Assembly (NCBI GenBank): GCA_038087875.1
Contig: CM075988.1
Coordinates: 26,166,001-26,230,000 of the forward strand
Source: Malacoraja senta
Taxonomy: Eukaryota
DNA: 64,000 nucleotides
Reading direction: 5' to 3'
Shown here: one piece after another, positions 5,110 to 44,722 of the stretch
Layout: each line of letters opens with the position of its first letter
How positions within the stretch are numbered: the first letter of the stretch is position 1
Position numbers and translations under genes: made by a program
The notes under the pieces: generated by a model
Databases searched by the model: none
Seen by the model: only the letters and a program-made list of their open reading frames with translations
Told to the model about the DNA's origin: nothing

Positions 5110-7120
5110 TAGAACTGTATTTATCCCAGGAGGGAAGTTGGTCTGCCAACAGTTATAAACCACAGCAAGATACATTAAACATGAAACTAAAGTGACGAGT
5201 GGAAAGTCCAGGATTGGGAATGGGCAAAGATTGGGGAGGGGAGGGGGGTGGGGGAAGGTGAGTCAGTCTACCTCATGACAGAAGGGAGGTGAGTTGTACA
5301 GTTTGATAGCTATAGGGAAAAATAATCTCCTGTGGCGTTCTGTGCTGCTTCTTGGTGGAACCAGTCTGTTGCTGAAGAGAGATTTAGAGATTAGAGATTC
5401 CTTTATTTGTCATTCAGACCTTCCGGTTTGAACGAAATTTCGTTGCCTGCAGTCATACATATAATAAATAACAAAACACACAATAAACACAAATTAACAT
5501 CCACCACAGTGAGTTCACCAGGCACCTCCTCACTGTGATGGAGGCAAAAGTCTTAAAGTTTCTGTCTCTTCCCTCTTTGTTCTCCCTCTGCGCTGAGGCG
5601 ATCCAGGCTTCTGACGTTGTGACCCCGCCGGGTGATGGTAAGTAAGTCAGTCCCGCGGCTGAATCCGTGCTCCGTCCGCGACGGGCCAGTTCAAACTCCG
5701 CGGCCCGGGGTGGCCGAAGCTGCCGAAGCTGCCGCCCTCCAGTCCAGTGGACGCAGCTGTAGTTGCGGCAGCCCCAGAAAAACAGGTCACCAACCTGTAA
5801 CCTGCGAGCTCCCGACGATGTCGTCCACTGGGCCCGCGGCCGAGCCTCCGGATTCAGGTCGTCACCAGTGTCCTCGGTCGCCACCGCCGGAACGCCACCG
5901 CAGCCCCGAAGTTGGCCAGCCCCGCGCTGGTAAGTCCTGGCTCTGCCTCCGGAGCCTCGAGGTCGGTCGGTCGGTCGCAGTTGGAGTTGGAGGCCGGCAG
6001 CTCCGCCCTTTGGCCTCGGCGCAGACGGAGGCAGAGAAGGGGGATACAACAAGAAAAAGTTGCATTCCCCCGAAGGAAGAGACAAAAATCATGTTTCACC
6101 CCCCCCCCCACACGTACATACACAACCCAATAAACTAAAATTTAACTAAAACAGGTGCTCCTCAGGTTGACCAGTGAGTCATGGAAGAGGTGAGCTGTGT
6201 TGTCCAAAATGCTCCGCAGTTTGAGGAGCATTCTCCTCTCCAAGACTACCTCCAGTGAATCCAACTCCACCCCCACGACGGAGACAGCCTTCCTGATGAA
6301 CTTGTTGGTTCTGTTGGCGTCCATGGCCTTCACCCTGCTTCCCCAGCACACGACAGCGTAGATGGCACTGGTCACCACCGATTGGTAGAACATCTGCAGC
6401 ATCTTACTGCAGATGTTGAAAGAGTGGAGCCTCCTCCAAAAGTACAGACGGCTCTGTCCCTTCTTATACAGTGCCTCAGCGTTCCTGGACCAGTCCAGTT
6501 TACTGTCCAGCTAAAGTCCAAGGTACTCCTTGGTAAACTGCACATCCACATCCATGATGGAGACAGGGGACATGGGGCTTTCCTCTCCACCACCAACTCA
6601 TTAGTCTTGTCAGTGTTGAGCTGCAGGTAATTCAGCCCACACCACTCAACAATGTCGTTGAGTACACCTCTGCATTCAGCTTCCCTCCCCTCACTGATGC
6701 AGCCCACAATTGCAGATTCATCCAAAAACATCTGCAGGTGGCAGGATTCCGAGTTGTATCTGAAATCTGAGGTGTAGATGGTGAACAGGAAGGGAGAGAG
6801 GACCGTCCCCTGAGGGGCCCCTGTGTTGCTCACTACCGTGCCGAGACACAGTTCTGCAGCCTGACATACTGTGGTCATCCAGTCAGGTAGTTGGTGATCC
6901 AGGACACCAACGGAGCATCCACCCACATCTTCGTCAGTTTGCAACCCAGCAGTGCAGGCCGGATGGTGTTAAAACACTGGAGAGGTAGAACATGATTCTC
7001 ACAGTGCTTCCCAGCTTATCCAGGTGAGCATAGGAACAATGGAGTAGGTGGATGATGGCGTCCTCCACCCCCACCTTTGTTTGTTAAGCGAACTGAGGGG
7101 GTCCAGGTAGGGTCAAACCA
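5110..7120 (-). mobile_element. Rex1/Babar-type LINE, 5'-truncated and frameshifted RT (interrupted by 5378-6152)
   Basis: VVSNTGAPQGTVLSPFLFTIYTSDFRYNSESCHLQMFLDESAIVGCI and MLQMFYQSVVTSAIYAVVCWG are Rex1-type RT and C-terminal motifs. Confidence 0.85.
5378..6152 (-). mobile_element. GC-rich non-autonomous retroelement, 5'-truncated copy of the 59165-60003 family
   Basis: Near-identical reverse complement of ~59250-60000. Empty site ctgaaggtgctc in the paralog at ~13226-13237. Confidence 0.85.
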
Positions 7121-7575
7121 GAGGCCACACAAAGTAAACAATAAAAAATGTGAGGTATTCATGGATTGGGAGGAGATGTAGGTCAGTGAGTACAAGTGAC
7201 ACACATTAGTCATCATCTGCTCTGGCTCCTTGCCTAACCCAGCACAATACTGAGGGAATTCCATTCAGAGACGGCATACGGGATTTGCCTTAAACCTGAA
7301 TGGAAGGGAGGGCAATGGTGGGGTGAGCAGGGGGTTGCTGGGCATGTGATGGATGTGGGCAGACAGCGCGGGCAGTAGGTTTCTACACAAAGTAAACAAT
7401 AATAAATGTGAAGTATTGATGGATTGGGAGGAAAAGTAGGTCACACGAGTGACACACATGACTGTGAAATAGGGCAGTGACAGTCACGTTTTGGAGTAAT
7501 TGGTTTGCAGAAAAACGTTGAAGCAACCAGTCTTGTGGAACCAGTCTTGTTGATGGGAGAGGGTTTTTGTTGTTG

Positions 7576-7607: not shown

Positions 7608-9963
7608 TTATTTATTAGAAGTACATCACAGCCACATACATTAATACTCGTCATTTATATCTTCTTACAATTAATGTACTCCCTTTATTTTTTTTTACGC
7701 TAAAGAAAGAAAAGATTGAAAGAGAGAAGAAAGTGAAGGAAAAAGTGCAAGTGTAGAAAAGTGTAGAAAATGTAACAACAAACAAAAAAAAAAAAAAGGA
7801 CGGGGACCCTATGAAAGCGAAATTAAAGACAAAAAAAAAAAGGAGTTAAGAAATAGGCCCTAAGAAAAGAAAAGAGAGAGAGAAAAAAAGAAAAACAAAT
7901 GTTTTTTTTTTTTTTTTGAGCATCACGTAAATAGGACATACCAACTCTTCAACTATCATCCCCCCTTACCCGACCTCAATTTTTTATTTTTTTAAAGTAC
8001 TTTTGCACCCTATGTTTGTAATAATTCTATAAATGCAGACCACGTCAGGTGGAAGTGATCTGGTTTACCTGCTAAGAGGAGTCTTATCTCTTCAAGGTGT
8101 AGTGTTTCAAACATATTTGAAATCCACATATTTATAGTTGGTATTGGAGCCTTCTTCCAAAATTTTAGAATTAGCTTTTTTCCAGTTATTAACCCATAAT
8201 CCATTAATTTCTTTTGAAACACATTTAGTTCTGGATCATCTTCCGTTATTCCGAAGATAATCCATTCTGCTTTGGGTATCAGTCTTGTTTTAAATAACTT
8301 TGTAAAGATTTCAAAAATTTCATTCCAAAATTTTTGAATTTTTGTACAGAAGACAAATGAGTGCGCTATAGTTGCTTCTTGGGATTGACATTTATCACAA
8401 ATAGATGATACGTTTGGGAAAATTTTATGAATTTTAGTTTTCGAATAATATAATCTATGTAAAATTTTAAATTGTATTAAAGTGTGTCTTACATTAATCG
8501 AGCATTTATGTACTTTTAATAAGTATTCATTCCAACTTTCCTTTGAAATTTTAATGGCTAACTCTTGTTCCCAGTCTCTTCTGATACCCTCCGTAGATGG
8601 TATTTGTACATTTAAGATAATATTGTACAAATATGATATTAAGTTTGCTGATTCCGCTTTTATCTGCATTGCCTCGTCCAGTACATCTGCTGGGTTATTA
8701 TGATGATCTTTTATATATTTTTTCAAATAGTCGCATATTTGAAAGTATTTAAAATATTGATTATTTCCGAGTTTATATTTTATTTGTAATTGTTGAAATG
8801 AAAGTAATTTTCCAGTTTCATACAAGTCACCAAGCGTTTTAATTCCTAGTCTATCCCATTGTGTATAAGCTTTATCTATAATAGAAGGACTAAACGAAGG
8901 GTTATTGACTATAGGTAATAAAAGTGATAAGTTTCTTAATTTTAAATTTTGTTTTATTTGTTTCCAAATACGGATTGTACTATGAATAATTGGGTTCTTA
9001 TTATAGTTTATGTTATTCAATTTCATTGGAGAGAGGAGGATCGCTCCAATGTTTCTAGAGGAGCAATCCTCTTTCTCCATTACAATCCAGTCTACTTGCT
9101 GGGCGGAGTTATCCATCAGTTGAATCATGTTTTTAATATTTACTGACCAATAATAATACATAAAATTGGGTAGTGCTAGACCCCCCAATACTTTAGATTT
9201 ATTCAGATGGGTTTTTTGTATTCTATGTGATTTATAGTCCCATATAAAATTAGTGATATCTGAGTCGAGTTTTTTAAAAAACTTCTTAGGTAAGTATATA
9301 GGAATTGATTGAAATAGGTATAAAATTTGTGGTAAAAAGATCATTTTTATTGCGTTTATTCGGCCTATTAAAGACATCGGAAGCGTTTTCCAGAATTTAA
9401 TTAATGTATTCAGTTTATTAAGTAGGGGGTCAAAATTTGCCCTGAGCATACCTTGATATGCTCTGGTAATTTCGATTCCCAAATATTTAAATTTTTCTGT
9501 AGCTATTTTAAAAGGGAATTTTAAAAGATGTGTTGAATCTTTCGGTTTTATTGACATAATTTCACTTTTATTCCAATTTATTCTATATCCAGAAAAAGAT
9601 CCGAAGTCTTCAATTAAATTTAATATATTTGGTATAGTGATTTGAGGTTTTGTGATATACAATAATATATCATCCGCGTATAAAGATATTTTATTATATG
9701 AGTCTTTAGTATTATATCCATGAATATCAGGGTGTATTCTAATTTTTTCTGCTAGCGGTTCAATAATGAGAGCAAACAGCTGTGGTGATAATGAGCATCC
9801 TTGTCTATTTCCCCTTGATAGTTGAAATTTCGAGGATAATATGTTATTAGTAAGTATTCTAGCTGTAGGTTTGTTATATAGTAACTTAATCCATAAAATA
9901 AAATTCTCTCCCAGTTGAAATTTTTGTAATACTTTATCCATATAATTCCATTCTACTTGATCT
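7578..9963 (-). mobile_element. L1 LINE, 5'-truncated, with poly(A) tail and an uninterrupted 643-aa ORF2 C-terminal part (8010-9941)
   Basis: RGNRQGCSLSPQLF, KISLYADDILLY, GGLALPNF and CDKC..H..C motifs. Poly(T) at ~7578-7601 on + strand next to a minus-strand AATAAA. Confidence 0.92.
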
Positions 9964-10411
9964 ACTTGTTTTTTTGTGTGGAAATCTACTGCCCGCGCTG
10001 TCTGCCCACATCCATCACATGCCCAGCAACCCCCTGCTCACCCCACCATTGCCCTCCCTTCCATTCAGGCTTAAGGCAAATCCCGTATGCCGTCTCTGAA
10101 TGGAATTCCCTTAGTATTGTGCTGGGTTAGGCAAGGAGCCAGAGCAGATGATGACAGTGATCATGGATCGGTCAGTGGGAGCTGTGCTGTACCCTGTAGA
10201 TGCTGCACTCGGCAATGTGGCAGGTTACCAGCTCATAAATAGACTGCGAGCATCAAAAGCCTCCCGCTCTTCCAGCTAACTCCCACTAAAATCACTCATT
10301 ACCTTTTCGTCTTCATTCCCTGGTTCCCATCGAACCCAACCACCATCCAGCCTGTGGCCGTGCAGATGCTAACCTGGATGAAAGCTCTGAACCTCTCCCA
10401 GAATACCTGTG

Positions 10412-13184: not shown

Positions 13185-14195
13185 AGTGGCGTTCTGTGCT
13201 GCTTCTTGGTGGAACCAGTCTGTTGCTGAAGGTGCTCTTCAGGTTGACCAGTGAGTCATGGAAGAGGTGAGCTGTGTTGTCCAAAATGCTCCGCAGTTTG
13301 AGGAGCATTCTCCTCTCCAAGACTACCTCCAGTGAATCCAACTCCACCCCCAGGACAGAGACAGCCTTCCTGATGAGCTTGTTGGTTCTGTTGGCGTCCA
13401 TGGCCTTCACCCTGCTTCCCCAGCACACGACAGCGTAGATGGCACTGGTCACCACCGATTGGTAGAACATCTGCAGCATCTTACTGCAGATGTTGAAAGA
13501 GTGGAGCCTCCTCCAAAAGTACAGACGGCTCTGTCCCTTCTTATACAGTGCCTCAGCGTTCCTGGACCAGTCCAGTTTACTGTCCAGCTAAAGTCCAAGG
13601 TACTCCTTGGTAAACTGCACATCCACATCCATGATGGAGACAGGGGACATGGGGCTTTCCTCTCCACCACCAACTCATTAGTCTTGTCAGTGTTGAGCTG
13701 CAGGTAATTCAGCCCACACCACTCAACAATGTCGTTGAGTACACCTCTGCATTCAGCTTCCCTCCCCTCACTGATGCAGCCCACAATTGCAGATTCATCC
13801 AAAAACATCTGCAGGTGGCAGGATTCCGAGTTGTATCTGAAATCTGAGGTGTAGATGGTGAACAGGAAGGGAGAGAGGACCGTCCCCTGTGGGGCCCCTG
13901 TGTTGCTCACTACCTGGCCGAGACACAGTTCTGCAGCCTGACATACTGTGGTCATCCAGTCAGGTAGTTGGTGATCCAGGACACCAACGGAGCATCCACC
14001 CACATCTTCGTCAGTTTGCAACCCAGCAGTGCAGGCCGGATGGTGTTAAAACACTGGAGAGGTAGAACATGATTCTCACTGTGCTTCCCAGCTTATCCAG
14101 GTGAGCATAGGAACAATGGAGTAGGTGGATGATGGCGTCCTCCACCCCCACCTTTGTTTGTTAAGCGAACTGAGGGGGTCGAGGTAGGGTCAAAC
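13185..14195 (-). mobile_element. Rex1/Babar RT fragment, near-identical duplicate of 5333-7120
   Basis: ORF 13449-14021 is almost identical to ORF 6372-6944, with the same frameshifts. Confidence 0.9.
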
Positions 14196-15954
14196 CAGAG
14201 GCCACACAAAGTAAACAATAAAAAAATGTGAGGTATTCATGGATTGGGAGGAGATGTAGGTCAGTGAGTACAAGTGACACACATTAGTGTGAAATAGGGC
14301 AGGGACAGACACGTTTGGAGGAGTTGAAGTTTACAGAGAATTGTAAACACCAGTAAGTGAGATTACAACATCAAGTGTAGTGGCAATAAACTCACAAATG
14401 TGGGCTTTGGTGAGTAGTTCAGAAGAGTTCTGATCAACATTGTGGCCCAGGATCTCGTGCTGCCAGAGTCGCTCTCCCGCTCACTCCCACTAAACCCGCA
14501 TTTCCTTTCCATCTTGCCTCAACTATATTCTGCTGAAGCCCACGTTGGTGACAGGACGGGCCCTAGTTGTTTACGTTGCACGTGACCTTGACAATGCTGA
14601 ATAAATTGCATGTTTTGGTTTGACAGTCTGGGATTGAGAGACTGGGGACTTGGAGCACCAGGTGGGCTGCTTGCTCCACAGGTATTCTGGGAGAGGTTCA
14701 CAGCTTTCATCCAGGTTAGCATCTGCACGGCCACAGGCTGGATGGTGGTTGGGTTCGATGGGAACCAGGGAATGAAGACGAAAAGGTAATGAGTGATTTT
14801 AGTGGGAGTTAGCTGGAAGAGCGGGAGGCTTTTGATGCTCGCAGTCTATTTATGAGCTGGTAACCTGCCACATTGCCGAGTGCAGCATCTACAGGGTACA
14901 GCACAGCTCCCACTGACCGATCCATGATCACTGTCATCATCTGCTCTGGCTCCTTGCCTAACCCAGCACAATACTAAGGGAATTCCATTCAGAGACGGCA
15001 TACGGGATTTGCCTTAAACCTGAATGGAAGGGAGGGCAATGGTGGGGTGAGCAGGGGGTTGCTGGGCATGTGATGGATGTGGGCAGACAGCGCGGGCAGT
15101 AGATTTCCACACAAAGTAAACAATAATAAATGTGAAGTATTGATGGATTGGGAGGACAAGTAGGTCACACGAGTGACACACATGACTGTGAAATAGGGCA
15201 GTGACAGTCACGTTTTGGAGTAATTGGTTTACAGAGAACTGTAATCATGAGGAAGTGAGATTAGTACATCGTCTAATGGCGATAAACTCACAAATGTGGG
15301 CTTTAGCAGAAAATCGTTGAAGCAACCAGTCTTGTGGAACAGTCTTGTTGATGGGAGAGGGTTTTTTTGTGTTTTTTTGTATCAAAAATAATTTATTTGA
15401 TTACGAATATGATACATAAACCAAAAACGTCTAGTGGCAATAATCTCACAAATGTGTGCTTTAACAGAAAATAGTTGAGGCAAGAAGTGTGGAAAGAGTC
15501 TTGTTGATGGCAGAGTATTGGATGGAACTGTAGCTCGAGGACAGGCGAGTTGCAGAAGAGTTTAGATCAACATTATGGCCCAGATCTCGTGCTGCCAGAG
15601 TCGCTCTCCCGCTCACTCCACCTAAACCCCCATTTCCTTTCTGTCTTGCCAAGTCTATTTTCTGCTAATGCCCTAGATGTGTAAGTTGCACATGACCTTG
15701 ACAGTGACCCACTCACCTGACCTTGAGCTACAGTTCCATCCAACACCTCTGCCATCTAACAAGAGACTGGTTCCAATACGTTTGCCTCAACTATTTTTTG
15801 CTTACTCATCTCACTTACTGGTGCTTACAATTCTCTGTAAACTTCAATTCCTCCAAAATGTGACTGTGACTGCCCTATTTCAACTAATGTGTGTCACTCT
15901 CGTACTCACAGGGACCATCTCCTCCCAATCCATGAATACCTCACATTTTTTATT

Positions 15955-19806: not shown

Positions 19807-19932
19807 CTGAAGAAAGGGTTTCGGCCCGAAACGTTACCTGTTTCCTTCGCTCCATAGATGCTGCTGCACCCGCTGAGTTTCTCCAGCATTTTTGTGTACC
19901 TTCGATTTTCCAGCATCTGCAGTTCCTTCTTT
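19807..19932 (+). mobile_element. Penelope terminal mini-insertion with 16-bp TSD
   Basis: TSD aacaggtttcctccat at 19791-19806 and 19933-19948. Starts at ctgaagaaagggtttcggcccgaaac. Confidence 0.8.
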
Positions 19933-20169
19933 AACAGGTTTCCTCCATGTTGCAATGGTCCTGCAATTCTATGAACAGTTTGTGAACAAACTGTTAGTAT
20001 CAGCGATCGCAGTCTTCTGTGAGGTATCAGTTTCAGCTGGACATGGGACGCAGAAAGATAATGACTCTTGTACAGTTAACTTACATGTAAATAGCAAAAC
20101 AACTCACCTTCTTCACACTGCCTGACTCCTAATGATATTAAAACATAACCCATTCAATCATTTATTTAT

Positions 20170-20233
20170 TAAAGAAGGAACTGCAGATGCTGGAAAATCG
20201 AAGGTACACAAAAATGCTGGAGAAACTCAGCGG
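20170..20233 (-). mobile_element. Penelope terminal fragment
   Basis: Reverse complement of ~19870-19933, flanked by the direct repeat atcatttattt. Confidence 0.7.
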
Positions 20234-20825
20234 GATCATTTATTTTGGGTGGGTGTTTCCTCTGGAGAGTACAGAAGTCATGGCCTTAAAGTGGGCGCTA
20301 AGTGTAGAGGAAATCAGAAAGACATTGAGGCTGAGAGTCAACGGAATATTCCAAAAGGAACATTTGTGGACTTCTGATTGGCAGAAGTTGTGGGACTAAG
20401 AAGTTTGTGGATATAAATAAAAAAAACTCTGGATATCTGAAATAAAACCAGAAAATGTCAGCAGCAGGTGTGAAAAGAGAAACTGCTGCATTCAGTTTCT
20501 CTTTTCACAGATATTTCCTGATTGCTGAATTTCCCAGCATTTTCTGGTTTTATTTTAGAAGTACATAAATGTGCTAAATAGAATTTTATCTGGAGAAGTG
20601 TGAAGTAATACATTTGGAGAAGGCAACAATAAATGGTCGTGGGCTTGTCAGTGTAGAGAGGGATCTTGGTGCACAAGTTCACAGGTCCTGAATGCAACAG
20701 GACAGTTGGACACTATTGGCTTAAAGTGTGTGCTCAGTTTTGGTCACCACAATACAGAAAGGGAGTAACAGCACCACAGATGATGCGGAGCACATTTACA
20801 AGGCTAACAACAGAAGGACATACAA

Positions 20826-22770
20826 ACGGAAGAAGCAGCAATGTGGCTCGTCTAGAGGTTCTCGGTAGAAGGCTCCCAGGATGCCACACGCGTGAGAAGG
20901 CTATCGAGATGGCGCGGAGTGGGAACTTCGTGGCCCAGGAGACTTGGTGGCCGGTGAAGGAACACCTGGCGGACTGCGGCCTGAAGGGGGATGCCTCCAA
21001 GCACACGCGGCCACACGCGGCGATAGTCCTGGCTCGCCGTTGTGAAGAAAGATCCGGCAGACCACGGCCGCAGGGGGAAGCTCGGAAGCCGGCGAGTTCG
21101 GCCCCGAGGACTGGAGAGCTTTTTTTTTTTTTTTTTTTTTTTCATTGTCAAGTAATTTATTTCACAGAGTTCGGTGTTCCAGCATTAATTCATAGATGGA
21201 TTACAGGTGATCCATCTACGTATGCGATTTTCCATAACGCAAAGCATTACATAGGAAACATGAGTTGAAATAAAATTAGTGCTGATTTATTTAAATTTAT
21301 TTAATAAATTCTGTGAAAGAATATTATTCCCTATCTCAACCAAGAACTAAAAAAATTGGAGCAGAATTCGGCCATTCAGCCCATCGAGTCTACTCCACCA
21401 CTCAATCATGGCTGATCTATTTTTCCCTCTCAACCCGATTCTCCTGCCTTCTCCAAAGCCTCCATATCTTTCCTGTAATGGGGAGACCAGAACTCACACA
21501 ATACTCCAAAAGTAGCCTAACCGAAGTTCTACAGAGTTGCATTATGACTTCCTAACTCTTATACTCCCAGCAATGAAGGCAGGCATGCCAGACACCTTTT
21601 TTCACAACCCTAACTCCTTTTGCTGCAGCCTTCAGTGAGTGATGAACTTGGACTCCAAGATCCCTCATGGCTGTTAAGGGTCTTGCCATTAACTGTAGAC
21701 TTTCCCCTTACATTCAAGCTCCCAAAGTGCAACACCTCACACTTGTTCGGGTACAACTCCATTTGCCATTTCCCCGCCCATATCTACAGCTGATCTATAT
21801 CTCACTGTATCTTCTGACAGCCTTCCTCCTTGTCTGCTGCTCCACTAATTTTGGTGTCATCAGCAAACATATTCACCAACCTATCGACATTTACATCTAA
21901 GTCGTGAGATTCTAAGATTACATTTTCTTTTTTTTTTTTAAATAATTTTTTTAATAGAAATACGGTAGATTACGGTAATGTACAACACGTATATATTAAT
22001 ACATTTTTTGTACCGCTTCACTTTTTTAAACTTTAAGAAAAAAAGAAAGAAGTAAGAAAGTGAAGAAAGTGCGCAAAGGTTGTGAAGTGCAAAAGAGTGT
22101 TGGGAAAAGAAAGCCCCTTAGAAAAGAAGTTAGAGAAGGAAGTAAAGTTAGAAAATAGACCCTAGAAAAGAAAGAGAAAGAAAGAAGGAACAATCGCTCT
22201 ATTATAACTCTTATAACATACTTCATAGAGAAGGAACTACCAACCAAGTCTGTTTTTGTTTTACCTCCCATTACCAGGTCCAGATACCTTTTATTTATTT
22301 ATTTGTTTTTCTAAATTACTATTGCACCTCATGCTTGTAATAGGTCCAAAAACGTAGACCACGTCTTTTGAAATTGGTCTACTTTGCCTACTAGGAGGAC
22401 TGGAGAGCTGAGGAGTTGGGCGTCATTGGCGACAACGGATGCGAGGAGGGGGCCGGTAGGAGAAGACCAGGGTATTGCCTCCAGTGCCTTCAAGTGTGGC
22501 TGCAGAAGACACAGAAGTCTGGCTCCAGGGACACAGAGAGTGGGTCAGGCAAGAAGGAGGACTTTGGTTGGAGGGCGATGGAAGAGGCCCTGCAGCAGCC
22601 CTGGTGCTTACCTGGATCGGGAGCCGCTCCAGTACATTGAGCACATGGACCAGACTTTGGACTCTTTTGTAAATGGCACCAAAATATGGCAACTCATGCA
22701 TGTGCAATCTATGCAAACAATAACTTCACTGTGCAGTACACAAGGACAATAAAGCACCATTAAACCATTG
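20826..22770 (+). mobile_element. GC-rich non-autonomous retroelement split by the L1 transduction insertion
   Basis: GC-rich halves 20826-21120 and 22410-22770 join across the TSD. Ends with gacaataaagcaccattaaaccatt, a LINE-like tail. Confidence 0.55.
21121..22394 (-). mobile_element. 5'-truncated L1 with 3' transduction
   Basis: L1 ORF2 end (LLVGKVDQFQKTWSTFLDLLQA*), L1 3' UTR, first poly(A) at 21923-21939, ~780 bp of non-L1 DNA, AATAAA at 21156-21161 and second poly(A) at 21121-21142. 15-bp TSD gaggactggagagct. Confidence 0.85.
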
Positions 22771-24099
22771 TCCCACCATTCAATCTTTTACCTCAGAACC
22801 ATTCCCTACAATAATCCCATATTCCTTGACAACTTTAATATCCAAAAATTATTAATCTGTCTTCTAGCTATGCAGTGACCGAGCTTCCACCGCCCTCTAA
22901 GGTAGAGAATTCCAAGGGCACACCACCCCATGGATGAAGATATTAGTTTTCACCTCAATCCTGAATGGCCAGCACCTTATTCCAGAGCTGTAACGCCTGG
23001 TTCTGGAGAACCCATTTGAGAGAAACCTTGTTTTTGCCTTTAGGTCTTTAAAAAAAATTGTATATTTCAAAGAAATCACTTCATATTACTCTAAACTCGA
23101 GAGTATATAAGCTTGGTCTGTCTCACCTCTCCCACAGAGCAAGCTCACATCTTAGGGAGCAATCTGGTGAGCCTTCTTTACACTCGCTCGTATCACACGT
23201 ACATCGTTTTCTGGCTACTTCGTTCGCTCGTGTGTCAGACGACGTATAGCTCGCTGTTGGCTTCTGTCGTAATCCAACATGTTGACAGAATTGGTCGCCC
23301 AACGCATCACAGAGTGCATCGTGTCGTCGTTTCCGGGGATCGCCACGAGGAGGCTTCTGTAATGATCCTCCTTGGGTACTTAGACAAGACCTATACATAG
23401 TATATAAGATGCATTAATTGCACAGGCTTTTTACTTTCACTGTCTTGCAGAATGTATGTATAATTTATGTTTCTGTGTGTTGTCAGAGTCTATGTGGAAG
23501 CAACATTTTCATTGTACCCGTACCTCACCATACTTGTGCACATAACAATAAATTTAACTTAACTTGATTTAATGAAAGGCAGAAAAATGGCAGGGGACTC
23601 ATTAAGTAACTTAGTAAAGGATTAACATATACAGATGAGGCTAAAAGACAAGTGGGGAAGATTTGGAAATCAACGTCTGAAAGAGTGGTGGAAACAAACA
23701 TTCTTCCCATATTTAAAAGGAGCCTGGTGAGCAGTATAATCAGCACGCTCTGGACCAACAGCTGGGAATGGGATTAAATTAAAGTTCATGCTGACTGACA
23801 TCGACATGAAAGGTTGAATGACTTCCTTTGGTCCCATGAATGTCTATGATTTATACGATTTAAATCCTATTACAGTGTAATAAATGCTCCAATGTGCAAA
23901 AATGGCAACCGATTTTTGCAAAGCAAGTTTGTAAAAATGGCAATAGCAGAATGACCAAATAATCTATGCGTTTAAAATATGTATATTGAGCACGAAATAT
24001 TTATCAGACACTACTTTTCTTCAAAATAGGATACCTGGAAGGGAGTAAAAATCCATGATTTGTATCCATCAAAAGTCAGCATGACAGTCAAAACTTGTT

Positions 24100-25605: not shown

Positions 25606-27837
25606 AAACCTTATACTGGCATGGTTTGTTATAATTCTAGAAACCCCACTCAGCATTCACTCCCCTTCCAATAATCCAAATCTTTCCCAATCAACTCAAC
25701 TATCTCCCCATCATCTTTCCCTCCTCCAGATCATTTTCTCCCTCTCCATCATCTCCACACTCCTGACCTCCCTTTTCCCAACATAACCCCTTCTCCTCCT
25801 ATTTTGTTCACATAACAGGTTCCTCAATTGACTGTCATAATTTCCCTTTTAACCCTCCCATCTTTACCCTGTCCCTTTCCACCTCACTGGTTAGCTTTTC
25901 ATTTCACTTCTCTTCTACTTTTGTGACCTTATCATCTCTAGCCATTGTCACATATCCTACCCATTTTCCAATTAAACGCCCCTCACTTGTATCCACCTAT
26001 CACTTGCTAGACTTTGTATCACCCCACTTCTCATTTGCAGCTTTCTGCCACCTACGACAATCAGCCTGAAGAAGGGTCCCGACCCAAATTGGCACCTATT
26101 TCTTCCCTCCATAGTTGCTGCCTGACTTGTGGAATTCCTCCAGCACTTTGTGTTTTGCTCAAGATTCCAGCATCTGCAGTCTCTTGTGTCACCTCAATTG
26201 ACATAATATGCAATATCCAATCTAAGATGCATTAGATGCACCATAATCCGCAACTGAGATCACTCCTTAAAAGCCAGTTTGTGCTAGTACCCTTTAAGGT
26301 CTCTCCAAAACACCTGATCCCTCCAAGTATATTGCCAGACAAAATCTGACACTGATCACATAAGGAAATATTATGACAGTCACTCAAGAAAAAAAAGTGT
26401 TCAGGAACAAACTAAAGTAGGAAAGAAATGTCGAGCTGGAGAAATGTAGGGAGGAAATTGTGGAGCGTGTGGAAAATGCAGCTGAAGGCATGAATTTCAA
26501 TGGTGGATCTAGTAGAACTGGGAATGCACAGAAGTCAGAATAGGAATAGTGCAGGAATCCTGGACAATTTAGAGGCTAGAGAGGGATAGAGACAGGAGCC
26601 ATGGACAGATTAAAAAACAAGAATGAAAGTTTTAAAACCGAGATGTGTTGCTGGATTGGAATCTAGTGTAGGTCAGAGATCACAAGGGTGAAATGTGAAC
26701 AGAGCTTAGTGCAAGCTAGGATACGAGTATTAATGAGTTGAAATATACATGGATTGCAAGTTGGGAGTCTGGCCAGGGGAGCTACAGAATAGCGGAGAAT
26801 CCAGAAGGAAGGCATTTTAAGCCATGTTGAAAAGGCTGAAGGGAGTTTGTAGGGTCATTTGTTGTCGTGGTCATGTTGACATCTTCCTTCTTTCAACTCT
26901 GTACGGTTTAGAAAGCTTTGTCTCCAGGGCAACAATGAATTCAAACAACATTTTCTAACACGACTCGACCCAGCTGTGGGTAATTTTAGCTACCACGTGA
27001 CTGCGTCTGATAGCAGGCTGCAGATTCTGGGCTGGGTGTGATTTGGACACCTGCTGCTAACTGTAACTTTAGAGCATACACATTCAAAATTATTTCTGTT
27101 TATCCGCACCTCCCGCCTGCAATCTTTTCAGATCCATTTCCTATACTCAAGCTACAAGACTCGATGTAAGGTTAAATAGTGTCTTGTATTTTTATAGTGA
27201 TCTCAGGAATGCATGATAAGACATCTTGGTGACAATGTCATTTTGATATGCGTTCACTCTGTCGAGTTAGAAGATAGGACAGCCAATTAGCACTAAGCAA
27301 GATCCCAGAACAAGAAATGTGATAAAGAGCAAATGATCTATTTTTAGTGTAGTTGGTTGAGGTTTATTTATTGGCCAGTACACCAGCGAAAATGCATCTG
27401 CAGTTCTTCAAAACAGTGCTGCGGGATGTCTTACACCCATCCGAGAGGGCAGATAGGGACATTCAACCGGAAGACATCATCTCGAGCTGCACCACTGACA
27501 TCTCAGATAAGATTATGTACTCAATTCCCTGGAGTGACCTCAAGTCAAGTGTGTAGCCAACAGAGCCAAGGTTGAGAATGAGATCTATTGGTCTTGCAGG
27601 CAACAGAGCTCACATTTCCCATAGTGGCCAAGTTTCCCATTCATGCCATTTTCCTTAGGCCCTGCAAGATTAAGCCGTGTTTCCATATTCTAACTTTGTT
27701 AAACAATAAAACATGGCTGATGTGTATCACAGATCTCTGAGGCTGAATTTTATAAGGCAATCTCGGTGTTATTTTTCAATAAAATGGAAATCCAATGGAT
27801 CACAAGTGTTTTTGACCCACTGTACTCGGGGTGGGGA

Positions 27838-28554
27838 ATGTGTTCCCCCTGCATCTACACATGGTATTGGGATGTGTTCCCCCTGCATCTACACATGGTA
27901 TTGGGATGTGTTCCCCCTGCATCTACACATGGTATTGGGATGTGTTCCCCCTGCATCTACACATGGTATTGGGATGTGTTCCCCCTGCATCTACACATGG
28001 TATTGGGATGTGTTCCCCCTGCATCTACACATGGTATTGGGATGTGTTCCCCCTGCATCTACACATGGTATTGGGATGTGTTCCCCCTGCATCTACACAT
28101 GGTATTGGGATGTGTTCCCCCTGCATCTACACATGGTATTGGGATGTGTTCCCCCTGCATCTACACATGGTATTGGAATGTGTTCCCCCTGCATCTACAC
28201 ATGGTATTGGAATGTGTTCCCCCTGCATCTACACATGGTATTGGGATGTGTTCCCCCTGCATCTACACATGGTATTGGGATGTGTTCCCCCTGCATCTAC
28301 ACATGGTATTGGGATGTGTTCCCCCTGCATCTACACATGGTATTGGGATGTGTTCCCCCTGCATCTACACATGGTATTGGGATGTGTTCCCCCTGCATCT
28401 ACACATGGTATTGGGATGTGTTCCCCCTGCATCTACACATGGTATTGGGATGTGTTCCCCCTGCATCTACACATGGTATTGGGATGTGTTCCCCCTGCAT
28501 CTACACATGGTATTGGGATGTGTTCCCCCTGCATCTACACATGGTATTGGGATG
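27838..28554. repeat. 34-bp minisatellite, 21 near-perfect copies
   Basis: Unit atgtgttccccctgcatctacacatggtattggg. Two adjacent units carry the same G>A variant (~28177, ~28211). Confidence 0.97.
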
Positions 28555-28849
28555 AGTCTTCTTGCTTTGGTTGACAATGCATTGTCTGAGTGGGACTCAA
28601 TCCTTTGCAAATACCTGATTTTACTTCGGAGTCACGTGAGTGACTACGTGAAGACCCCGTCCAGCCGCACACGCTTCATATCGATCAGACGCATAGCGTT
28701 CATGACCGTGTGTGGAGGAGCAGGAGCTCCTCCAGCCGGTGAGTAAAAAGCAAAGTTAAAGTAAAAGTCGGAAGGTAAGTGGTTTCATTTTCACTTACAG
28801 GGTGCTTTTCTTCCCGCTCAGACGTGTTGGTAGAGGTCCACACAAGTTA

Positions 28850-30349: not shown

Positions 30350-33300
30350 GTTTCACACTCACAAATAGGGGGAAGGTTACGATTCTTCCTCAAAGAATGG
30401 CAATCAATAACAAATGATTCATTTATTTTATGTAGCATTGTAGGATTCAAAATTGAGTTCACTCCACGTTTGGATCCTCCAATTCAGCATAATTCAAACT
30501 GGTCACGGATTTTCTCAAAGGAACAGAATAAGTTGATCAAGTGAGAATTGAAAATTTTATGCGGAAAAGGAGGTAATAGAAAAGTCAGTAGAACAACACC
30601 ATCAGTTTGTGTCAAATATTTCCCAGAACAAAAAAGGATGGTGGATGTAGAATCCTTTCGGATCTGAAAAATCTTAAACCTTTATGTACAATAGAAACAT
30701 TCCAAAATGGAAACATTGACTAAATGCCATTCAGCTGGTCACAAAGAATTGCTACATGGCAAGCACAGATCTGCAAAATGCATATTATTCTGTGAAATGC
30801 ATGGTAATGATCAAAGATATTTGAAATTTAGATGGATGAGTCAGTTATGGCAATTTAAAACATTGCCCAATGGCCTGATATCAGCACCAAGATTATTCAC
30901 TAAAATTAGCGACAGCGGCCGGGCCTCCGGTATAGAGACCGGTCCTGTTGCTCAGAAGGGTAAGGAAAAGAAGAGGAGGGCAATATTAATAGGGGACTCT
31001 ATAGTTAGGGGGTCAGACAGGCGATTCTGTGGACGCAGTCGGGAGACCCGGATGGTAGTTTGCCTCCCTGGTGCCAGGGTCTGTGATGTGTCTCAACGTG
31101 TCCAAGACATCCTGAAAGGGCAGGGAGAGAAGCCCGAGGTCGTGATACATATAGGTACCAATGACATAGGTAAAAAAAGAGAAGAGGTCCTGAAAGGAGA
31201 ATTTAGGGAGTTAGGAGGGGAGTTAAAGAGAAGGACAGCAAAGGTAACAATCTCGGGATTACTGCCTGTGCCACGCGACAGTGAGAGTAGGAATGGAGCG
31301 AGGTGGAGGATAAATGCGTGGCTGAAGGACTGGTGCAGAAAGCAGGGATTCAAATTTCTGGATCATTGGGACCTCTTTTGTGGAAGGTTCGACCTGTACA
31401 AAAAGGATGGGTTGCACTTGAACCTGAGGGGGACCGATATCCTGGCGGGGAGATCTGCAAAGGCTACTGGGGAGACTTTAAACTAGAATGGTTGGGGGGA
31501 GGGACTCAAATAGAGAATGCTATTAGACAGTGTGTGAGGCAGGAGGCAGAGAAGGAAAGCACTCAGACCCAACATGTAGGGACGAAAGAAGAAAACAATA
31601 ATAAACAGAGAATAAGAGGTGGTGGGGTTCTTAAATGGGTGAGCAGAGAAACAGAGGGGTGTAAAATGCGGGCGGAAGCAATAGGTAGCAAGGTGAAAAG
31701 TAAAAGTGGCAGGCAGACAAATCCAGGGCAAAAATCAAAAAGAGCCGCTTTTCAACATAATTGTATAAGGGGTAAGAGCGTTGTAAAAACAAGCCTGAAG
31801 GCTTTGTGTCTCAATGCAAGGAGCATTTGTAATAAGGTGGATGAGTTGAACGTGCAGATAGCAATTAATGATTATGATATAGTTGGGATCACGGAGACAT
31901 GGCTCCAGGGTGACCAAGGCTGGGAGCTGAACATCCAGGGATATTCAATATTCAGGAGGGATAGAGAGAAAGGAAAAGGAGGTGGGGTAGCGTTGCTGGT
32001 TAGAGAGGAGATTAACGCAGTGGAAAGGAAGGACATTAGCTTGGAGGATGTGGAATCGGTATGGGTAGAGCTACGAAACACTAAGGGGCAGAAAACGCTG
32101 GTGGGTGTTGTGTACAGGCCACCTAGCAGTAGTAATGAAGTTGGGGATGGCATCAAACAGGAAATTAGAAATGCATGCAACAAAGGCAAAACAGTTATAA
32201 TGGGTGACTTCAATCTACATATAGATTGGGTGAATCAAATTGGCAGGGGTGCTGAGGAAGAGGATTTCTTGGAATGTATGAGGGATAGTTATCTAAACCA
32301 ACATGTAGAGGAACCAACGAGAGAGCAGGCTATTCTAGACTGGGTATTGAGTAATGAGGAAGGCTTAGTTAGCAGACTTGTTGTGCGTGCCCCCTTGGGC
32401 AAGAGTGACCATAATATGGTTGAGTTCTTCATTAGGATGGAGAGTGACATTGTTAATTCAGAAACAACGGTTCTGAACTTAAAGAAAGGTAACTTTGAGG
32501 GTATGAGACGTGAATTGGCCAAGATTGACTGGCAATTAGTTCTAAAAGGGTTGACGGTGGATATGCAATGGAAGGCATTTAAAGACTGCATGGATGAACT
32601 ACAAAAATTGTTCATCCCAGTTTGGCAAAAGAATAAATCAGGGAAGGTAGTGCATCCGTGGATAACAAGGGAAATCAGGGATAGTATCAAAGCAAAAGAT
32701 GATGCGTACAAATTAGCCAGAAAAAGCAGCATACCAGAGGACTGGGAGAAATTCAGAGACCAGCAGAGGAGGACAAAGGGCTTAATTAGGAAAGGGAAAA
32801 TAGATTATGAAAGGAAACTGGCAGGGAACATAAAACTGACTGCAAAAGTTTTTATAGATATGTGAAGAGAAAGAGATTAGTTAAAACAAATGTAGGTCCC
32901 TTGCAGTCAGAAACAGGTGAATTGATCATGGGGAACAAGGATATGGCGGACCAATTGAATAACTACTTTGGTTCCGTCTTCACTAAGGAAGACATAAATA
33001 ATCTGCCGGAAATAGCAGGGGGCCGCGGGTCAAAGGAGATGGAGGAACTGAGTGAAATCCAGGTTAGTCGGGAAGTGGTGTTGGGTAAATTGAATGGATT
33101 AAAGGCCGATAAATCACCAGGGCCAGATAGGCTGCATCCCAGAGTACTTAATAATAATAATAATAGATTAGGAAGTAGCTCCAGAAATAGTGGATGCATT
33201 AGTGATAATTTTTCAAAACTCTTTAGATTCTAGAGTAGTTCGGAGGGTAGCAAACGTAACCCCACTTTTTAAGAAGGGAGGGAGAGAGAAAATGGGGAAT

Positions 33301-35950
33301 TACAGACCAGTTAATCTAACATCGGTAATGGGGAAACTGCTAGAGTCAGTTATTAAAGATGGGATAGCAGCACATTTGGAAAGTGGTGAAATCATTGGAC
33401 AAAGTCAGCATGGATTTACGAAAGGTAAATCGTGTCTGACGAATCTTATAGAATTTTTCGAGGATGTAACTAGTAGAGTGGATAGGGGAGAACCAGTGGA
33501 TGTGTTGTATCTGGACTTTCAGAAGGCTTTCGACAAGGTACCACATAAGAGATTAGGATACAAACTTAAATCACACGGTATTGGGGGTTCAGTATTGATG
33601 TGGATAGAGAACTGGCTGGCAAACAGGAAGCAAAGAGTAGGAGTAAACGGGTCCTTTTCACAATGGCAGGCAGTGACTAGTGGGGTACCGCAAGGCTCAG
33701 TGCTGGGACCCCAGCTATTTATAATTTATATTAATGATCTGGACGAGGGAATTGAAAGCAACATCTCCAAGTTTGCGGATGACACTAAGCTGGGGGGCAG
33801 TGTTAGCTGTGAGGAGGATGCTAGGAGTCTGCAGGGTGACTTGGATAGGCTGGGTGAGTGGGCAAATGTTTGGCAGATGCAGTATAATTTGGATAAATGT
33901 GAGGTTATTCACTTTGGTGGCAAAAACGGGAAGGCAGACTATTATCTAAATGGTGGCTGATTAGGAAATGGGGAGATGCAGCGAGACCTGGGTGTCATGG
34001 TACACCAGTCATTGAAAGTAGGCATGCAGGTGCAGCAGGCAGTGAAGAAAGCGAATGGTATGTTGGCCTTCATAGCAAGAGGATTTGAGTATAGGAGCAG
34101 GGAGGTTCTACTGCAGTTGTACAGGGTCTTGGTAAGACCACACCTGGAGTATTGCGTACAGTTTTGGTCTCCAAATCTGAGGAAGGACATTATAGCCATA
34201 GAGGGAGTGCAGAGAAGGTTCACCAGACTGATTCCTGGGATGTCAGGACTTTCATATGAAGAAAGACTGGATAGACTTGGCTTATACTCGCTAGAATTTA
34301 GGAGATTGAGAGGGGATCTTATAGAAACGTACAACATTCTTATGGGGTTGGACAGGCTAAATGCAGGAAGATTGTTCCCGATGTTGGGGAAGTCCAGGAC
34401 AAGGGGTCACAGCTTAAGGATAAGGGGGAAATCCTTTAAGACCGAGATGAGGAAAAACTTTTTCACACAGAGTGGTGAATCTCTGGAACTCTCTGCCACA
34501 GAGGGTAGTTGAGGCCAGTTCATTGGCTATATTTAAGAGGGAGTTAGATGTGGCCCTTGTGGCTAAAGGGATCAGGGGGTATGGAGAGAAGGCAGGTACG
34601 GGATACTGAGTTGGATGATCAGCCATGATCATATTGAATGGCGGTGCAGGCTCGAAGGGCCGAATGGCCTACTCCTGCACCTATTTTCTATGTTTCTATG
34701 TTTACTCAAACCAATTTTAGCTCTGCTAAGAGCTGAGGGCCATGTATTAATGGTTTATTTAGAGGATATTCTGATTGTGCGGGATACTTTGGCTACTGCA
34801 ATATTGTCAGTATCTAGAGTCAAATACATTTTGAAAAAATGGGTTTCATTATTCACCTACAAAAATCAAAATTGTTACCAAGCAAGAATAATTGATTAGC
34901 CAGGGTTCACAATTAACTCTGAACACATGGTAATCACCTTGCCAAAAGATAAGGCTGCAGTTAATTGAAGATTGCACTAAACTGATAAACGAGGACAAGC
35001 CTTCAATTAGAGAAGTGGCAAGCTTTGCTGGGCAAATTAATTGCTGGGTTTCCAGCTGTCAGGTTTGGACCATTGCATTATCAATGTTTACAGAAGGCTA
35101 AGGTACAAGCATTAAAAATGAATACAGGGCATTTTGACAGGCCATGAAATTAACAATTGGATCCATTACAGAAATAGAATGGTGGATTAACAATGTCTCT
35201 AATGCTTCCAGAAAAGTTCTGGTAGAAACACCTTCCGTCATTCTACAAACTGATGTAACTGCTCTTGGATGGGCGCAACTAACATGATTTCCAGCTGTGG
35301 AGGTAGGTGGAATGTCGATGAAGTACCTTTGCTTGAAAATTAAGGAATAAATTACCTAGAGCTGTTAGGAGCATTTCATGGCCTTAAAGCTTATTGCACT
35401 AATATGGGAAATGTGCATGTTCAGGTACAGGTTGACAATACTACAGCTGTAGCATACCTAAATCGCATGGGTGGTATCAAATCAGAATCATGTGATAGAT
35501 TGACAAATGAAATTTGGACCTGGTGTATTGCCAGAAAAAATTTGGCTGTCAGCAATATATTTACCAGGAAAATTTAACTTAATTGCAGTCAAAATATCAC
35601 GTAAATTTAATGATAATACAGAATGGATGTTAAATCAGGAAATATTTACACAAATTGTAACACAATTTGGAATGCCAGAGATTGATTTGTTTGCATCAAG
35701 ACTAAACCACCAATTGCCTAAATATGTGTCATGGGAACCTGATCCTGGTGCAGTAGCGGTGGATGCTTTCTCGCTACATTGGGGTGGTATGTTTCTGTAT
35801 GCATTTCCACCATTTTGTTTAATCAACAGATGCATACAGAAAATTAAACAAGACTCGGCCTCAGGGATTTTGGTAGTACCAGACTGGCCTACCACTGGTG
35901 TTAAAAATGATCAAAAAAACCCTTATGATTATTCCAAAGCAGATAAAACT
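30350..35950 (+). pseudogene. DIRS pol: RT (split by CR1), RNase H (~35240-35610) and Dam-like methyltransferase domain (~35620-35900)
   Basis: GGRLRFFLKEW; WQFKTLPNGLISAPRLFTK|LLKPILALLRAEGHVLMVYLEDILI; NYLEL..VDNTTAVAYLNRMGG; IDLFASRLNHQLPKY..DAFSLHW..YAFPPF. Frameshifts and stops present. Confidence 0.88.
30908..34701 (+). mobile_element. CR1 LINE, 5'-truncated in ORF1: SGNH esterase ORF1 and APE-RT ORF2 with several disablements
   Basis: IGDSIVR..HIGTND..DGLHL (esterase); CLNARS..GITETW..MGDFN..SDHN (APE); SGVPQGSVLGP..SKFADDTKL (RT); 3' tail (ttctatgt)n. Confidence 0.95.
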
Positions 35951-36010
35951 ACTTGTACACCCTGTAACTGATGAACCACATCCTTGACATGATCGTATTG
36001 GTTTGTTGAT

Positions 36011-37007
36011 TTGCAGATTCTAAGAAGGCCATATCTTGGAAAAGGATTATCAGACTGTACGGTGGATGTTATGACAGCAGCCTGGAGGAATAGTACCCAG
36101 AAGCAGTACATTTCCTATATAAAGAAATGGGAGGTGTTTTGTTCAGGAAAGAATATTGCATATAACACAGCAGAAATTTCAGATGTAATAGAGTTTCTTT
36201 AAACTCTATACTACAAATTAAAATTAAGTTATAGTGCAATCAATACTGCACGAAGTGCACTCTCTGCATATTTAAGCAGTGAATCAGAACAAAATCCAAT
36301 AGGATCACATCCTTGGGTCTGTAGGTTTATGAAAGGAATTTTCAACTCCAATCCTCCTAGACCTAGGTATACAGAAATCTTGAATGTAAAAGATGTACTG
36401 ATGCTGCTGAGGATTGGAATCCTATTGAAACTCTGTCATTAGCCAAAAATCACCATGAAATTGGTTATGCTCATGGCATTAGTTTCAGCTCAGAGAGTTC
36501 AAACATTACAAAAACTAAGAATTGACAGAATGAAGGTAGGGGCGAATGCTGTTACATTCTATGTCTATGATTTACTGAAGCAAAGTAGACCTGGGTTCAC
36601 AGGATGTAAGTTGGAGTTTTTCAACATATCCTACAGATCCACGGCTATGTGTAGTAACATATGTAAAATGTTACATAGAAACAACAAGAATCTTAAGAGG
36701 CACAGAATTGGCAATTTTTATTAGTCATAAAAAGCCTCATAAGAAAGTGTCAACACAGACAATTTCAAGATGGTTGAAACAGGTGTTGATTTATTCAGGT
36801 ATTGATACTGATAAATTTAGATCTCATTCCACCAGGGCGGCATCAACAACGGCGGCCAGGGATTCAGATGTGCCAATAGACCTTATCCTCGCGGCCGCAG
36901 GATGGGCAAGTGAACAGATGTTTCACAAGTATTACCATAAGGAGATTAAAGATCTCGGGGTGTTTAGTGATGCCGTGCTGGATTCAGTATTAAATCCCCC
37001 ATTATAA
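36011..37007 (+). pseudogene. DIRS tyrosine recombinase, frameshifted
   Basis: STQKQY..W; LMALVSAQRVQTL (catalytic R); HSTRAAS (HxxR); AGW..FHKYY (W, Y). Confidence 0.9.
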
Positions 37008-39315: not shown

Positions 39316-41028
39316 TAAAAACTTTTTTTAATTAAAAAAAAAAAAAATTCTATAGATAATAAAAGATAGAAAAACGTGTGATATATAGTGTGTGAAAAGA
39401 AAAAAAGGATGAAAGAAGAAAAGTGAAGAAAAGAAGATAGAAAGAGAAAGAGTAGAAAGTAAGAGATTAAGGAGATTGTTATATATATTCTTGACCATCC
39501 CTCACCCAGTCGGCTTCTACGATTTAGTTGCACCATGTGCTTCCAAAAAGTCGACAAATGGAGACCAACTCGTTAAGAATTGGTCTGATTAATCTATTAG
39601 GAGGAATCGCATTTCCTCAAGATGTGCGGTGTCCAACATGTTTGAAATCCACATTTTAAGCGTTGGTGTGGGTGTATTTTTCCAAAATTTAATTATACGT
39701 TTTTTTGCCGTTATTAACCCATAATTAAAAAATAAATATTGAGATGAGTTCAATTTGTTCCCGTCTTCCATTACTCCAAATATAATCATTTCAGTATTAG
39801 GTTCCATTTTTATCTTGAATAATTTTGTAAATATTTCAAAAATATCACTCCAGAATTTATAAAGTTTTATGCAGGAAACAAAAGAGTGTGTTATAGTTGC
39901 ATTTTGGGATAGACATTTATCACAAATGGGGGAAGTATTTGGATAGAATTTATTCAATCTAGTTTTTGAATAATATAATCTATGTAAAATTTTAAATTAA
40001 ATTAAATTATGTCTTACATTAATCGAACATTTGTGTATATATATCAAATACTTTTCCCATGTTTCCTTCGTGATTTTTATTATTAATTCTCGTTCCCACT
40101 CTTCTCTAAGTGCCTCTGTCGATGGTAGTTCTATATTTAAAATACTATTATATAAGTATGATATTAATTTCTGTGAGTCAGCCTTAATATTCATTGCTTC
40201 TTCCATTGGGTCTAAAGTTATGTTTTGATATCTTTGTATGTATTTCTTCATGAAGTCGCAGATCTGAAGATATTTAAAATATTGGGTATTTTTCAGTTTA
40301 AATTTTAATTGTAATTGTTGGAATGATAACAGATTTCCCATTTCATACATATCACCGATCCTTTTAATTCCCATTCTTTCCCATTGATTATATGTTTTAT
40401 CAATAAGAGATGGTTTAAATGAAGGATTATTCACTATTGGCATTAACAATGATAGGTTTCTTAATTTTAAAGATAATTTTATTTGTTTCCAAATTCTTAT
40501 TGTATCATGTATAATTGGGTTATTCTTATATATTGTGTTGTTCAGTTTTATCGGGGAGAAGAGGATCGCTTCTATGTTACAAGGAGAACAATCCTCTTTC
40601 TCCATTCTTATCCATTCTGTCTGTTGGGTAGGACTGTCCAACCAATAAATTATATTCTTAATATGCACTGCCCCATAATAATACAAAAAGTTCGGAAGTG
40701 AAACTCCCCCAACGTCTTTTGGTTTGCACAAATGTTTTCTTTGAATTCTGTGTGATCCATAGTCCCAAATAAAATTGGTAATATTAGAGTCTAGTTTTTT
40801 GAAAAAGTTTTTGCGTATATATAATGGTATAGATTGAAATAGGTATAATATTTGTGGTAAAAAGATAATTTTTATAGCGTTTATTCTGCCTATTAATGAT
40901 AACGGAAGTGTTTTCCAGAATTTAATCAACGCGTTGAGTTTATTTAATAAAGGCATAAAATTAGCATTAAATAATGCTTTGTATTTTCTAGTAATTTGAA
41001 TACCCAAATACTTAAATTTTTCTGTTGC
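39316..41028 (-). mobile_element. L1 fragment (subfamily B), ORF2 C-terminus plus 3' UTR
   Basis: ORFs 39997-41007 and 39589-39957 are homologous to 8010-9941. Confidence 0.9.
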
Positions 41029-41029
41029 A

Positions 41030-43961: not shown

Positions 43962-44722
43962 ATAATTCCTATTCTTTCCCATTGATTATATGTTTTATCA
44001 ATAAGAGATGGTTTAAATGAAGGATTATTCACTATTGGCATTAACAATGATAGGTTTCTTAATTTTAAAGATAATTTTATTTGTTTCCAAATTCTTATTG
44101 TATCATGTATAATTGGGTTATTCTTATATATTGTGTTGTTCAGTTTTATCGGGGAGAAGAGGATCGCTCCTATGTTACAAGGAGAACAATCCTCTTTCTC
44201 TATTCTTATCCATTCTGTCTGTTGGGTAGGACTGTCCAACCAATAAATTATATTCTTAATATGCACTGCCCAATAATAATACAAAAAGTTCGGAAGTGAA
44301 AGTCCACCAACGTCTTTTGGTTTGCACAAATATTTTCTTTGAATTCTGTGTGATCTATAGTCCCAAATAAAATTGGTAAAATTAGAGTCTAGTTTTTTGA
44401 AATTTTTTTGGTATATATAATGGTATAGATTGAAATAGGTATAATATTTGTGGTAAAAAGATCATTTTTATAGCGTTTATTCTGCCTATTAATGATAACG
44501 GAAGTGTTTTCCAGAATTTAATCAACGCGTTGAGTTTATTTAATAAAGGCATAAAATTAGCATTAAATAATGCTTTGTATTTTCTAGTAATTTGAATACC
44601 CAAATACTTAAATTTTTCTGTTGCAATTTTAATAGGTGTGTAGATTCTTGTGGTTTTAACGTCATGATTTCACTTTTATTCCAATTTATTCTATATCCAG
44701 AAAAATAACCGAATTCCTCTAT
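43962..44722 (-). mobile_element. L1 internal fragment (subfamily B), near-duplicate of 40366-41028
   Basis: ORFs 43871-44329 and 44382-44603 are near-identical to parts of ORF 39997-41007. Confidence 0.88.

Follow-up and report, generated by a model that had tools for sequence, protein, structure and literature searches.

L1 retrotransposons can duplicate the DNA that flanks them by 3′ transduction, which also provides a means of tracing active source elements. The partnered form has been described in human and mouse (Goodier 2000 and Pickeral 2000, cited in PMC5381506 and PMC5470649; population map in PMC9311842). As set out in the available parts of these sources, its products have in common with the insertion described here an L1 3′ end, an internal A-tract, a unique flank of less than 1 kb, 5′ truncation, an AATAAA 10–40 nt before a second poly(A), one target-site duplication (TSD) around the whole, and a separate donor locus. 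In the available part of the population map, 51 of 268 high-confidence human L1 transductions derive from non-reference sources, with lengths of 8–997 bp (PMC9311842). Two other known systems are close. 5′-truncated L1 insertions with microhomology (PMC2912911; Ichiyanagi and Okada 2008 via PMC6007223, both in part) resemble our case in the TSD, which at 15 bp lies within the L1 range of 7–18 bp, and in a probable 5-nt microhomology at the 5′ junction. Orphan transductions and retrocopies (mechanism in the available part of PMC5470649) share two traits with it: a single-copy locus that was copied with a poly(A) tail, and visible donor alleles without an L1.

Among the repeats of cartilaginous fishes, CR1, L2 and old, degenerate elements prevail, according to the available parts of PMC5381603 and PMC13343379. 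Our literature search, whose coverage excluded most subscription journals, found no report of L1 3′ transduction in cartilaginous fish or any other non-mammalian vertebrate, and the available parts of PMC3956500, PMC12361510 and bioRxiv 10.1101/2025.06.08.657570 make no mention of transduction in cartilaginous fishes. The process, though familiar from mammals, thus appears to be undescribed in cartilaginous fishes.

We analyzed a 64,000-nucleotide stretch of skate DNA (hereafter the window) in which an initial annotation, made in a presumed chondrichthyan, had proposed an L1 read-through transduction. The host assignment holds. An uninterrupted 1582-codon ORF at 51185–55933 (plus strand) encodes a C4orf54 homologue with DUF4585, whose residues 1–500 are closest to skate (91%), followed by two rays (65–72%) and by sharks and chimaera (44–57%). 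The proposed insertion comprises 1274 bp between two copies of a 15-mer. On the minus strand it reads in the order TSD, last ORF2 codons, L1 3′ UTR, A12GA4, a 780-bp tag with AATAAA and 13 nt at its end, A22, and TSD. Its parts and immediate surroundings are as follows (window coordinates, strand, identity and basis).

20810..21105, no strand: left part of the interrupted host repeat, GC- and CpG-rich (63% GC, 26 CpG in 296 bp), boundary approximate
21106..21120, minus: 3′ copy of the 15-bp TSD (sequence, contigs)
21121..21142, minus: pure 22-nt poly(A) tail (sequence; donor contigs run on past the poly(A) site)
21143..21922, minus: 780-bp tag from a single-copy donor locus (window comparison; donor contigs in X1, X3 and X4)
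about 21345–21143, minus: part of the tag, unique DNA (window comparison, contigs)
21156..21161, minus: AATAAA that served the new 3′ end, followed after 13 nt by the poly(A)
21454–21358, minus: part of the tag, high-copy CR1-type 3′ end (window comparison, contigs)
about 21918–21451, minus: part of the tag, old CR1-type ORF2 debris (comparison with a window element)
21923..21939, minus: internal A-tract, A12GA4 (sequence; in register with the poly(A) tails of two L1s in the window)
21940..22328, minus: T-rich L1 3′ UTR, with ATTAAA at 21955–21950 (alignment with window L1s; contig depth)
22329..22394, minus: last 21 codons and stop of the ORF2 of a 5′-truncated L1 (translation, ORF2 comparison)
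22395..22409, minus: 5′ copy of the 15-bp TSD (sequence; single copy at the empty site in X3 and X4)
22410..22690, no strand: right part of the interrupted host repeat, boundary approximate (contig depth table)

Both copies of the claimed 15-mer, at 21106–21120 and 22395–22409, were confirmed, and there is no further copy on either strand of the window. Exact direct repeats of at least 15 nt spaced 0.5–3 kb apart form 40 blocks in the window, and the only one of the 40 that adjoins poly-T/poly-A is this 15-mer. Its length fits the L1 TSD mode of 13–15 bp in mammals and zebrafish (PMC6007223, available part). The last 5 nt of the 5′ copy (22399–22395) are TCCTC, a motif that is present at the L1 ORF2 truncation point in all three window paralogues (3/3). 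Judged from these paralogues, which belong to other subfamilies and are 62–64% alike, TCCTC at the 5′ junction is probably a microhomology with L1 ORF2. Such an overlap fits, since microhomology marks the 5′ junction of about 80% of 5′-truncated human L1s (PMC2912911, available part). The skate copy departs from ordinary 5′-truncated L1 insertions in enclosing 780 bp of non-L1 DNA within its TSD. It also departs from the human and mouse transductions in its cartilaginous-fish host, in a source L1 that was not found, and in its target, which in element sense is TCCTC/AGCTC rather than the mammalian TT/AAAA consensus, A being only the first base of the TSD.

The 5′ part of the insertion derives from the 3′ end of an element of the L1 clade, as seen from an ORF2 match and a 3′ UTR alignment. 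The minus strand of 22394–22329 translates as LVGKVDQFQKTWSTFLDLLQA-stop, with 56% identity over 23 aa to the end of a window L1 ORF2 (ORF 8010–10037) that carries RVT_1 and matches human LINE-1 ORF2p with an E of 9e-63, versus 1e-8 for R2 proteins. Two other window L1s align at 62–64% across the whole 3′ part, and the poly(A) of both begins in register with the internal A-tract. Sequence and paralogue alignment thereby bear out the earlier identification of an ORF2 end, a 3′ UTR and an A-tract (21923–21939) on the minus strand. The T-rich 3′ UTR is like that of zebrafish L1, whereas mammalian L1 3′ UTRs bear G-tracts (PMC5381506, available part). The signal of the focal L1 is ATTAAA, and two of the three window paralogues have AATAAA; since the L1 at 39.3 kb also has ATTAAA, this may be the normal signal of the focal family. 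A12GA4 would derive from the source L1 as its genomic tail, and may also include the beginning of the TSD that flanked this source. Relative to the window copy, almost every contig of the family carries an additional A at position 22056 (in X2, 84,396 out of a depth of 86,920), and the shorter run is either a private marker of the source L1 or a homopolymer error.

Other L1-related and RT-like sequences in the window carry repeats of their own. A 670-bp stretch of one L1 family occurs at 43963–44631 and 40365–41035 (657 of 669 identical), flanking a 2.9-kb L1 that belongs to a different family. Its second copy starts at the tail of that L1; the pair would be either two nested copies or a target duplication of unusual length. 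Two 1059-bp copies (6153–7210 and 13230–14288), 99% identical and overlapping RT-like ORFs, represent a recent duplication or young LINE copies.

Between the A-tract and the poly(A), the annotation had claimed about 780 bp of non-L1 DNA with old CR1 debris. The length is 780 bp, and the RT debris, which is stop-ridden, matches the element at 33172–34512 with 41–56% amino acid identity. This element carries RVT_1 and matches LINE-1 only at E 1e-7; from its motifs we take it, and the tag debris, to be CR1. The AATAAA claimed 13 nt before a 22-nt poly(A) is likewise in place (21161–21156, then A22), and two AATAAA further upstream in the tag (21301 and 21291) were bypassed. Signal bypass is given for mammalian L1 only, in the available part of PMC5381506. 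Besides the well-placed AATAAA, the tag has UGUA motifs upstream. Its unique part has no second copy within the window, and an exact 23-nt tag pattern gave 0 matches in the metagenome contigs searched. The moved DNA is non-coding debris, and a functional effect is not expected.

To compare the locus across genomes, we searched sequencing runs with words from the tag. This search listed 24 runs, with no RNA run among them; they include two organism A runs from one study that share 75% and 73% of the tag words, and 21 that share 0.07–0.15 of them, two of which were compared further. Contigs of four of the 24 runs were compared with 20300–23200 at 85% likeness: X1 and X2 (organism A; one study, either run possibly being the window's own source), X3 (organism B) and X4 (organism C). 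The comparison covered the sequence outside the A-tracts and their immediate neighborhood, where the donor's own target site would lie. The evidence below comes from the best matches, and contigs drop rare variants, showing presence rather than absence.

Both relatives compared (2/2) have an orthologous empty site with a single 15-mer. Contig 17 of X3 (1937 nt) carries 20300–21106 and 22396–22538 in adjacent letters, and contig 24 of X4 (1917 nt) carries 20300–21105 and 22395–22570 in the same way, with left flanks diverged from the window by 7.1% and 6.5%, respectively. A check proposed with the annotation, that uninterrupted host copies hold the 15-mer once, thus came out as predicted in both X3 and X4. 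The single 15-mer indicates that the repeat is a true TSD, and the empty sites indicate that the whole 1274 bp arrived after the split from these species. The left and right parts of the host repeat are contiguous in X3 and X4; across X1–X4 the left part is near single-copy and the right part moderately repeated, with no further copy of the host repeat within the window. Another joint, 21090–22427 (X2 and X3), was rejected for the 15-mer test as a diverged paralogue, having 32 other letters between its sides and a short side of 21 letters.

The tag also exists as a separate, single-copy locus, found in contigs of X1, X3 and X4. Its orthologues have diverged by 5.4% (X3) and 6.3% (X4), similar to the flanks, in two species without the insertion. 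The donor contigs extend 283 (X1), 272 (X3) and 286 (X4) letters past 21154 into DNA unmatched to the window stretch. The X1 extension would reach 20871, yet X1 depth is absent at 20785–20978, so the X1 contig is not the filled allele. In X2 the unique tag bin has a depth of 35, versus 92,000–328,000 over the L1 3′ UTR; in X1 the corresponding values are 3 and 60,000–176,000. Such contig depths do not translate into copy numbers (35 and 59 over the tag in X2, 25–29 over the flanks), but the contrast with the L1 3′ UTR excludes the tag as a family-wide extended UTR, a possibility that had been raised with the original claim.

The predicted donor therefore exists and continues beyond the poly(A) site in X1, X3 and X4, but the further prediction, that it lies directly downstream of a longer L1, was not borne out by the contigs of X1 and X4. 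Contig 5 of X1 (1035 nt, depth 3.8) carries 21799–21912 with one difference and then 921 upstream letters; these are not L1, because as L1 they would form the longest X1 piece and none such is among those listed. Contig 29 of X4 has 854 non-L1 letters upstream of the donor sequence. A source L1 was thus absent upstream of the donor in both visible places, one of them a single low-depth X1 contig, and the X2 piece is not among the matches listed. Transduction from a donor that lacks an L1 in its visible alleles needs a source L1 that is polymorphic or lost, and we infer that this is the case here.

The tag differs from the X1 donor at one position in 592 bp, and the X2 flanks differ from the window at 11 positions in 1337 (0.8%). 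The tag–donor difference is below flank polymorphism, which makes the insertion younger than ordinary allelic variation; on this sequence comparison, the event is very young. Contig 9 of X2 ends at 21120 and contig 10 starts at 21142 (computed), which are the two junctions, and contigs of the relatives pass unbroken. From these contig ends, X2 would carry both filled and empty alleles, and the insertion is probably polymorphic for presence and absence.

Partnered L1 3′ transduction from a polymorphic or lost source L1 is the most likely reading, and we consider it probable. One TSD brackets both L1 and tag, and the two have the same orientation. Five defining features of partnered 3′ transduction are present in the skate insertion, making it a probable member of that class. 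The original claim of read-through transduction accordingly keeps its TSD, empty site, A-tract, donor and second poly(A), and lacks the source L1 upstream of the donor in X1 and X4. Under this reading, a young L1 would have inserted just upstream of the donor locus, and Pol II would have passed its ATTAAA signal and genomic A-tract and continued 780 nt into the flank, the transcript being polyadenylated 13 nt after a cryptic AATAAA. L1 ORF2p would then have nicked the GC-rich repeat at another place, reverse transcription would have started at the new tail, crossed the tag and covered 455 nt of the L1, and the cDNA would have been joined at the 5-nt microhomology, leaving the 15-bp TSD.

We next considered readings in which L1 and tag did not arrive together on an L1 read-through transcript. 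Cellular retrocopies are known to nest in L1 tails, and A-tracts are favored L1 targets in mammals. A 455-bp truncated L1 could thus have inserted first with the 15-bp TSD, followed by a 5′-truncated donor retrocopy or orphan transduction in its poly(A), with its own TSD hidden in the A's. The donor without an upstream L1 in both visible places would suit this, as would the well-placed AATAAA and upstream UGUA motifs of the tag. However, the empty sites in relatives and the single difference in 592 bp would leave very little time for two events, both within about 20 bp, the sole target seen for the focal L1 family is not A-rich, and the 3′ end has no second copy of the G-interrupted tract. Unlike orphan transductions and nested retrocopies, the skate TSD encloses L1 and tag, which match in orientation and are equally young. 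No tag-less L1 joint at the site was present among the best 15 of 362 joints, a comparison in which A-tract joints were dropped and an all-A inner TSD would be invisible. We consider two events unlikely, and a single event would be the better account.

Alternatively, a host promoter could have driven a Pol II transcript across a polymorphic, and maybe truncated, donor L1, the RNA being retrocopied in trans and truncated within the L1. This accounts equally well for the anatomy, and no source copy was seen that would give its length. The truncation must nevertheless land inside the L1 by chance, and mammalian L1 proteins favor their own RNA. Microhomology, moreover, occurs more often where L1 has inserted in cis than where an mRNA was retrocopied (PMC2912911, table 7, available part), and we regard this reading as quite unlikely.

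A template switch within one TPRT event, starting on donor-locus RNA and resuming, after a jump, at the poly(A) end of an L1 RNA of unrelated origin, would explain both the one TSD and why neither X1 nor X4 shows an L1 ahead of the donor sequence. It requires an independent donor transcript, and few chimeras arise by template switching, most of those in mammals carrying the L1 on their 3′ side; we regard this reading as very unlikely. That the focal L1 subfamily regularly has the tag as an extended 3′ UTR, or that the whole is a chance repeat or assembly chimera, draws on the finding that no single contig in X1–X4 spans the whole filled allele, but is largely refuted and has next to no probability left, given the depth contrast described above, the tag orthologues in species without the focal L1, the empty sites with one 15-mer, and the X2 contig ends that coincide with both junctions.

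Partnered transduction in the skate, if true, would make read-through and flank mobilization an ancestral property of jawed-vertebrate L1 and would show L1 to be recently active in a group described as dominated by CR1, L2 and old, degenerate elements. The tag offers a direct handle on one source element, although the mechanism itself would surprise few specialists. The L1 family may be the more useful lead, through a species-specific burst. Over its 3′ UTR (21949–22336), summed contig depth is 60,000–328,000 in X1 and X2 and 0–10 in X3 and X4. Organism A therefore has the family in abundance, whereas the two relatives, about 7% diverged, almost lack it, which would reflect either a lineage-specific burst or horizontal arrival. 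A family that is young and abundant in organism A is expected to include unfixed source elements. A broader reading, for and against which we see about equal weight, is that a species-specific L1 burst is under way in the skate lineage and that its segregating sources, like human L1s, shuffle their flanks through 3′ transduction; this insertion would then be the first traced case in a cartilaginous fish, with source and daughter both polymorphic. Were this so, it would become possible to map hot L1s in a lineage that is considered to evolve slowly and to be dominated by CR1/L2.

Several minor features lie outside the insertion. An Rfam search over 19–25 kb gave one sub-threshold match, a weak CPEB3 ribozyme hit at 23337–23368 (minus strand; 20.3 bits versus a gathering score of 35, E 0.08) that is probably due to chance. 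A near-perfect tandem array with a 34-bp unit occupies 27835–28557 and is open in all three plus frames, and two plus-strand ORFs (35504–35971 and 36579–37007) resemble what we take to be the RNase H and tyrosine recombinase of a DIRS-type retroelement. A perfect 66-nt inverted pair (19869–19934 and 20169–20234, 234 nt apart) probably represents two copies of a young short repeat.
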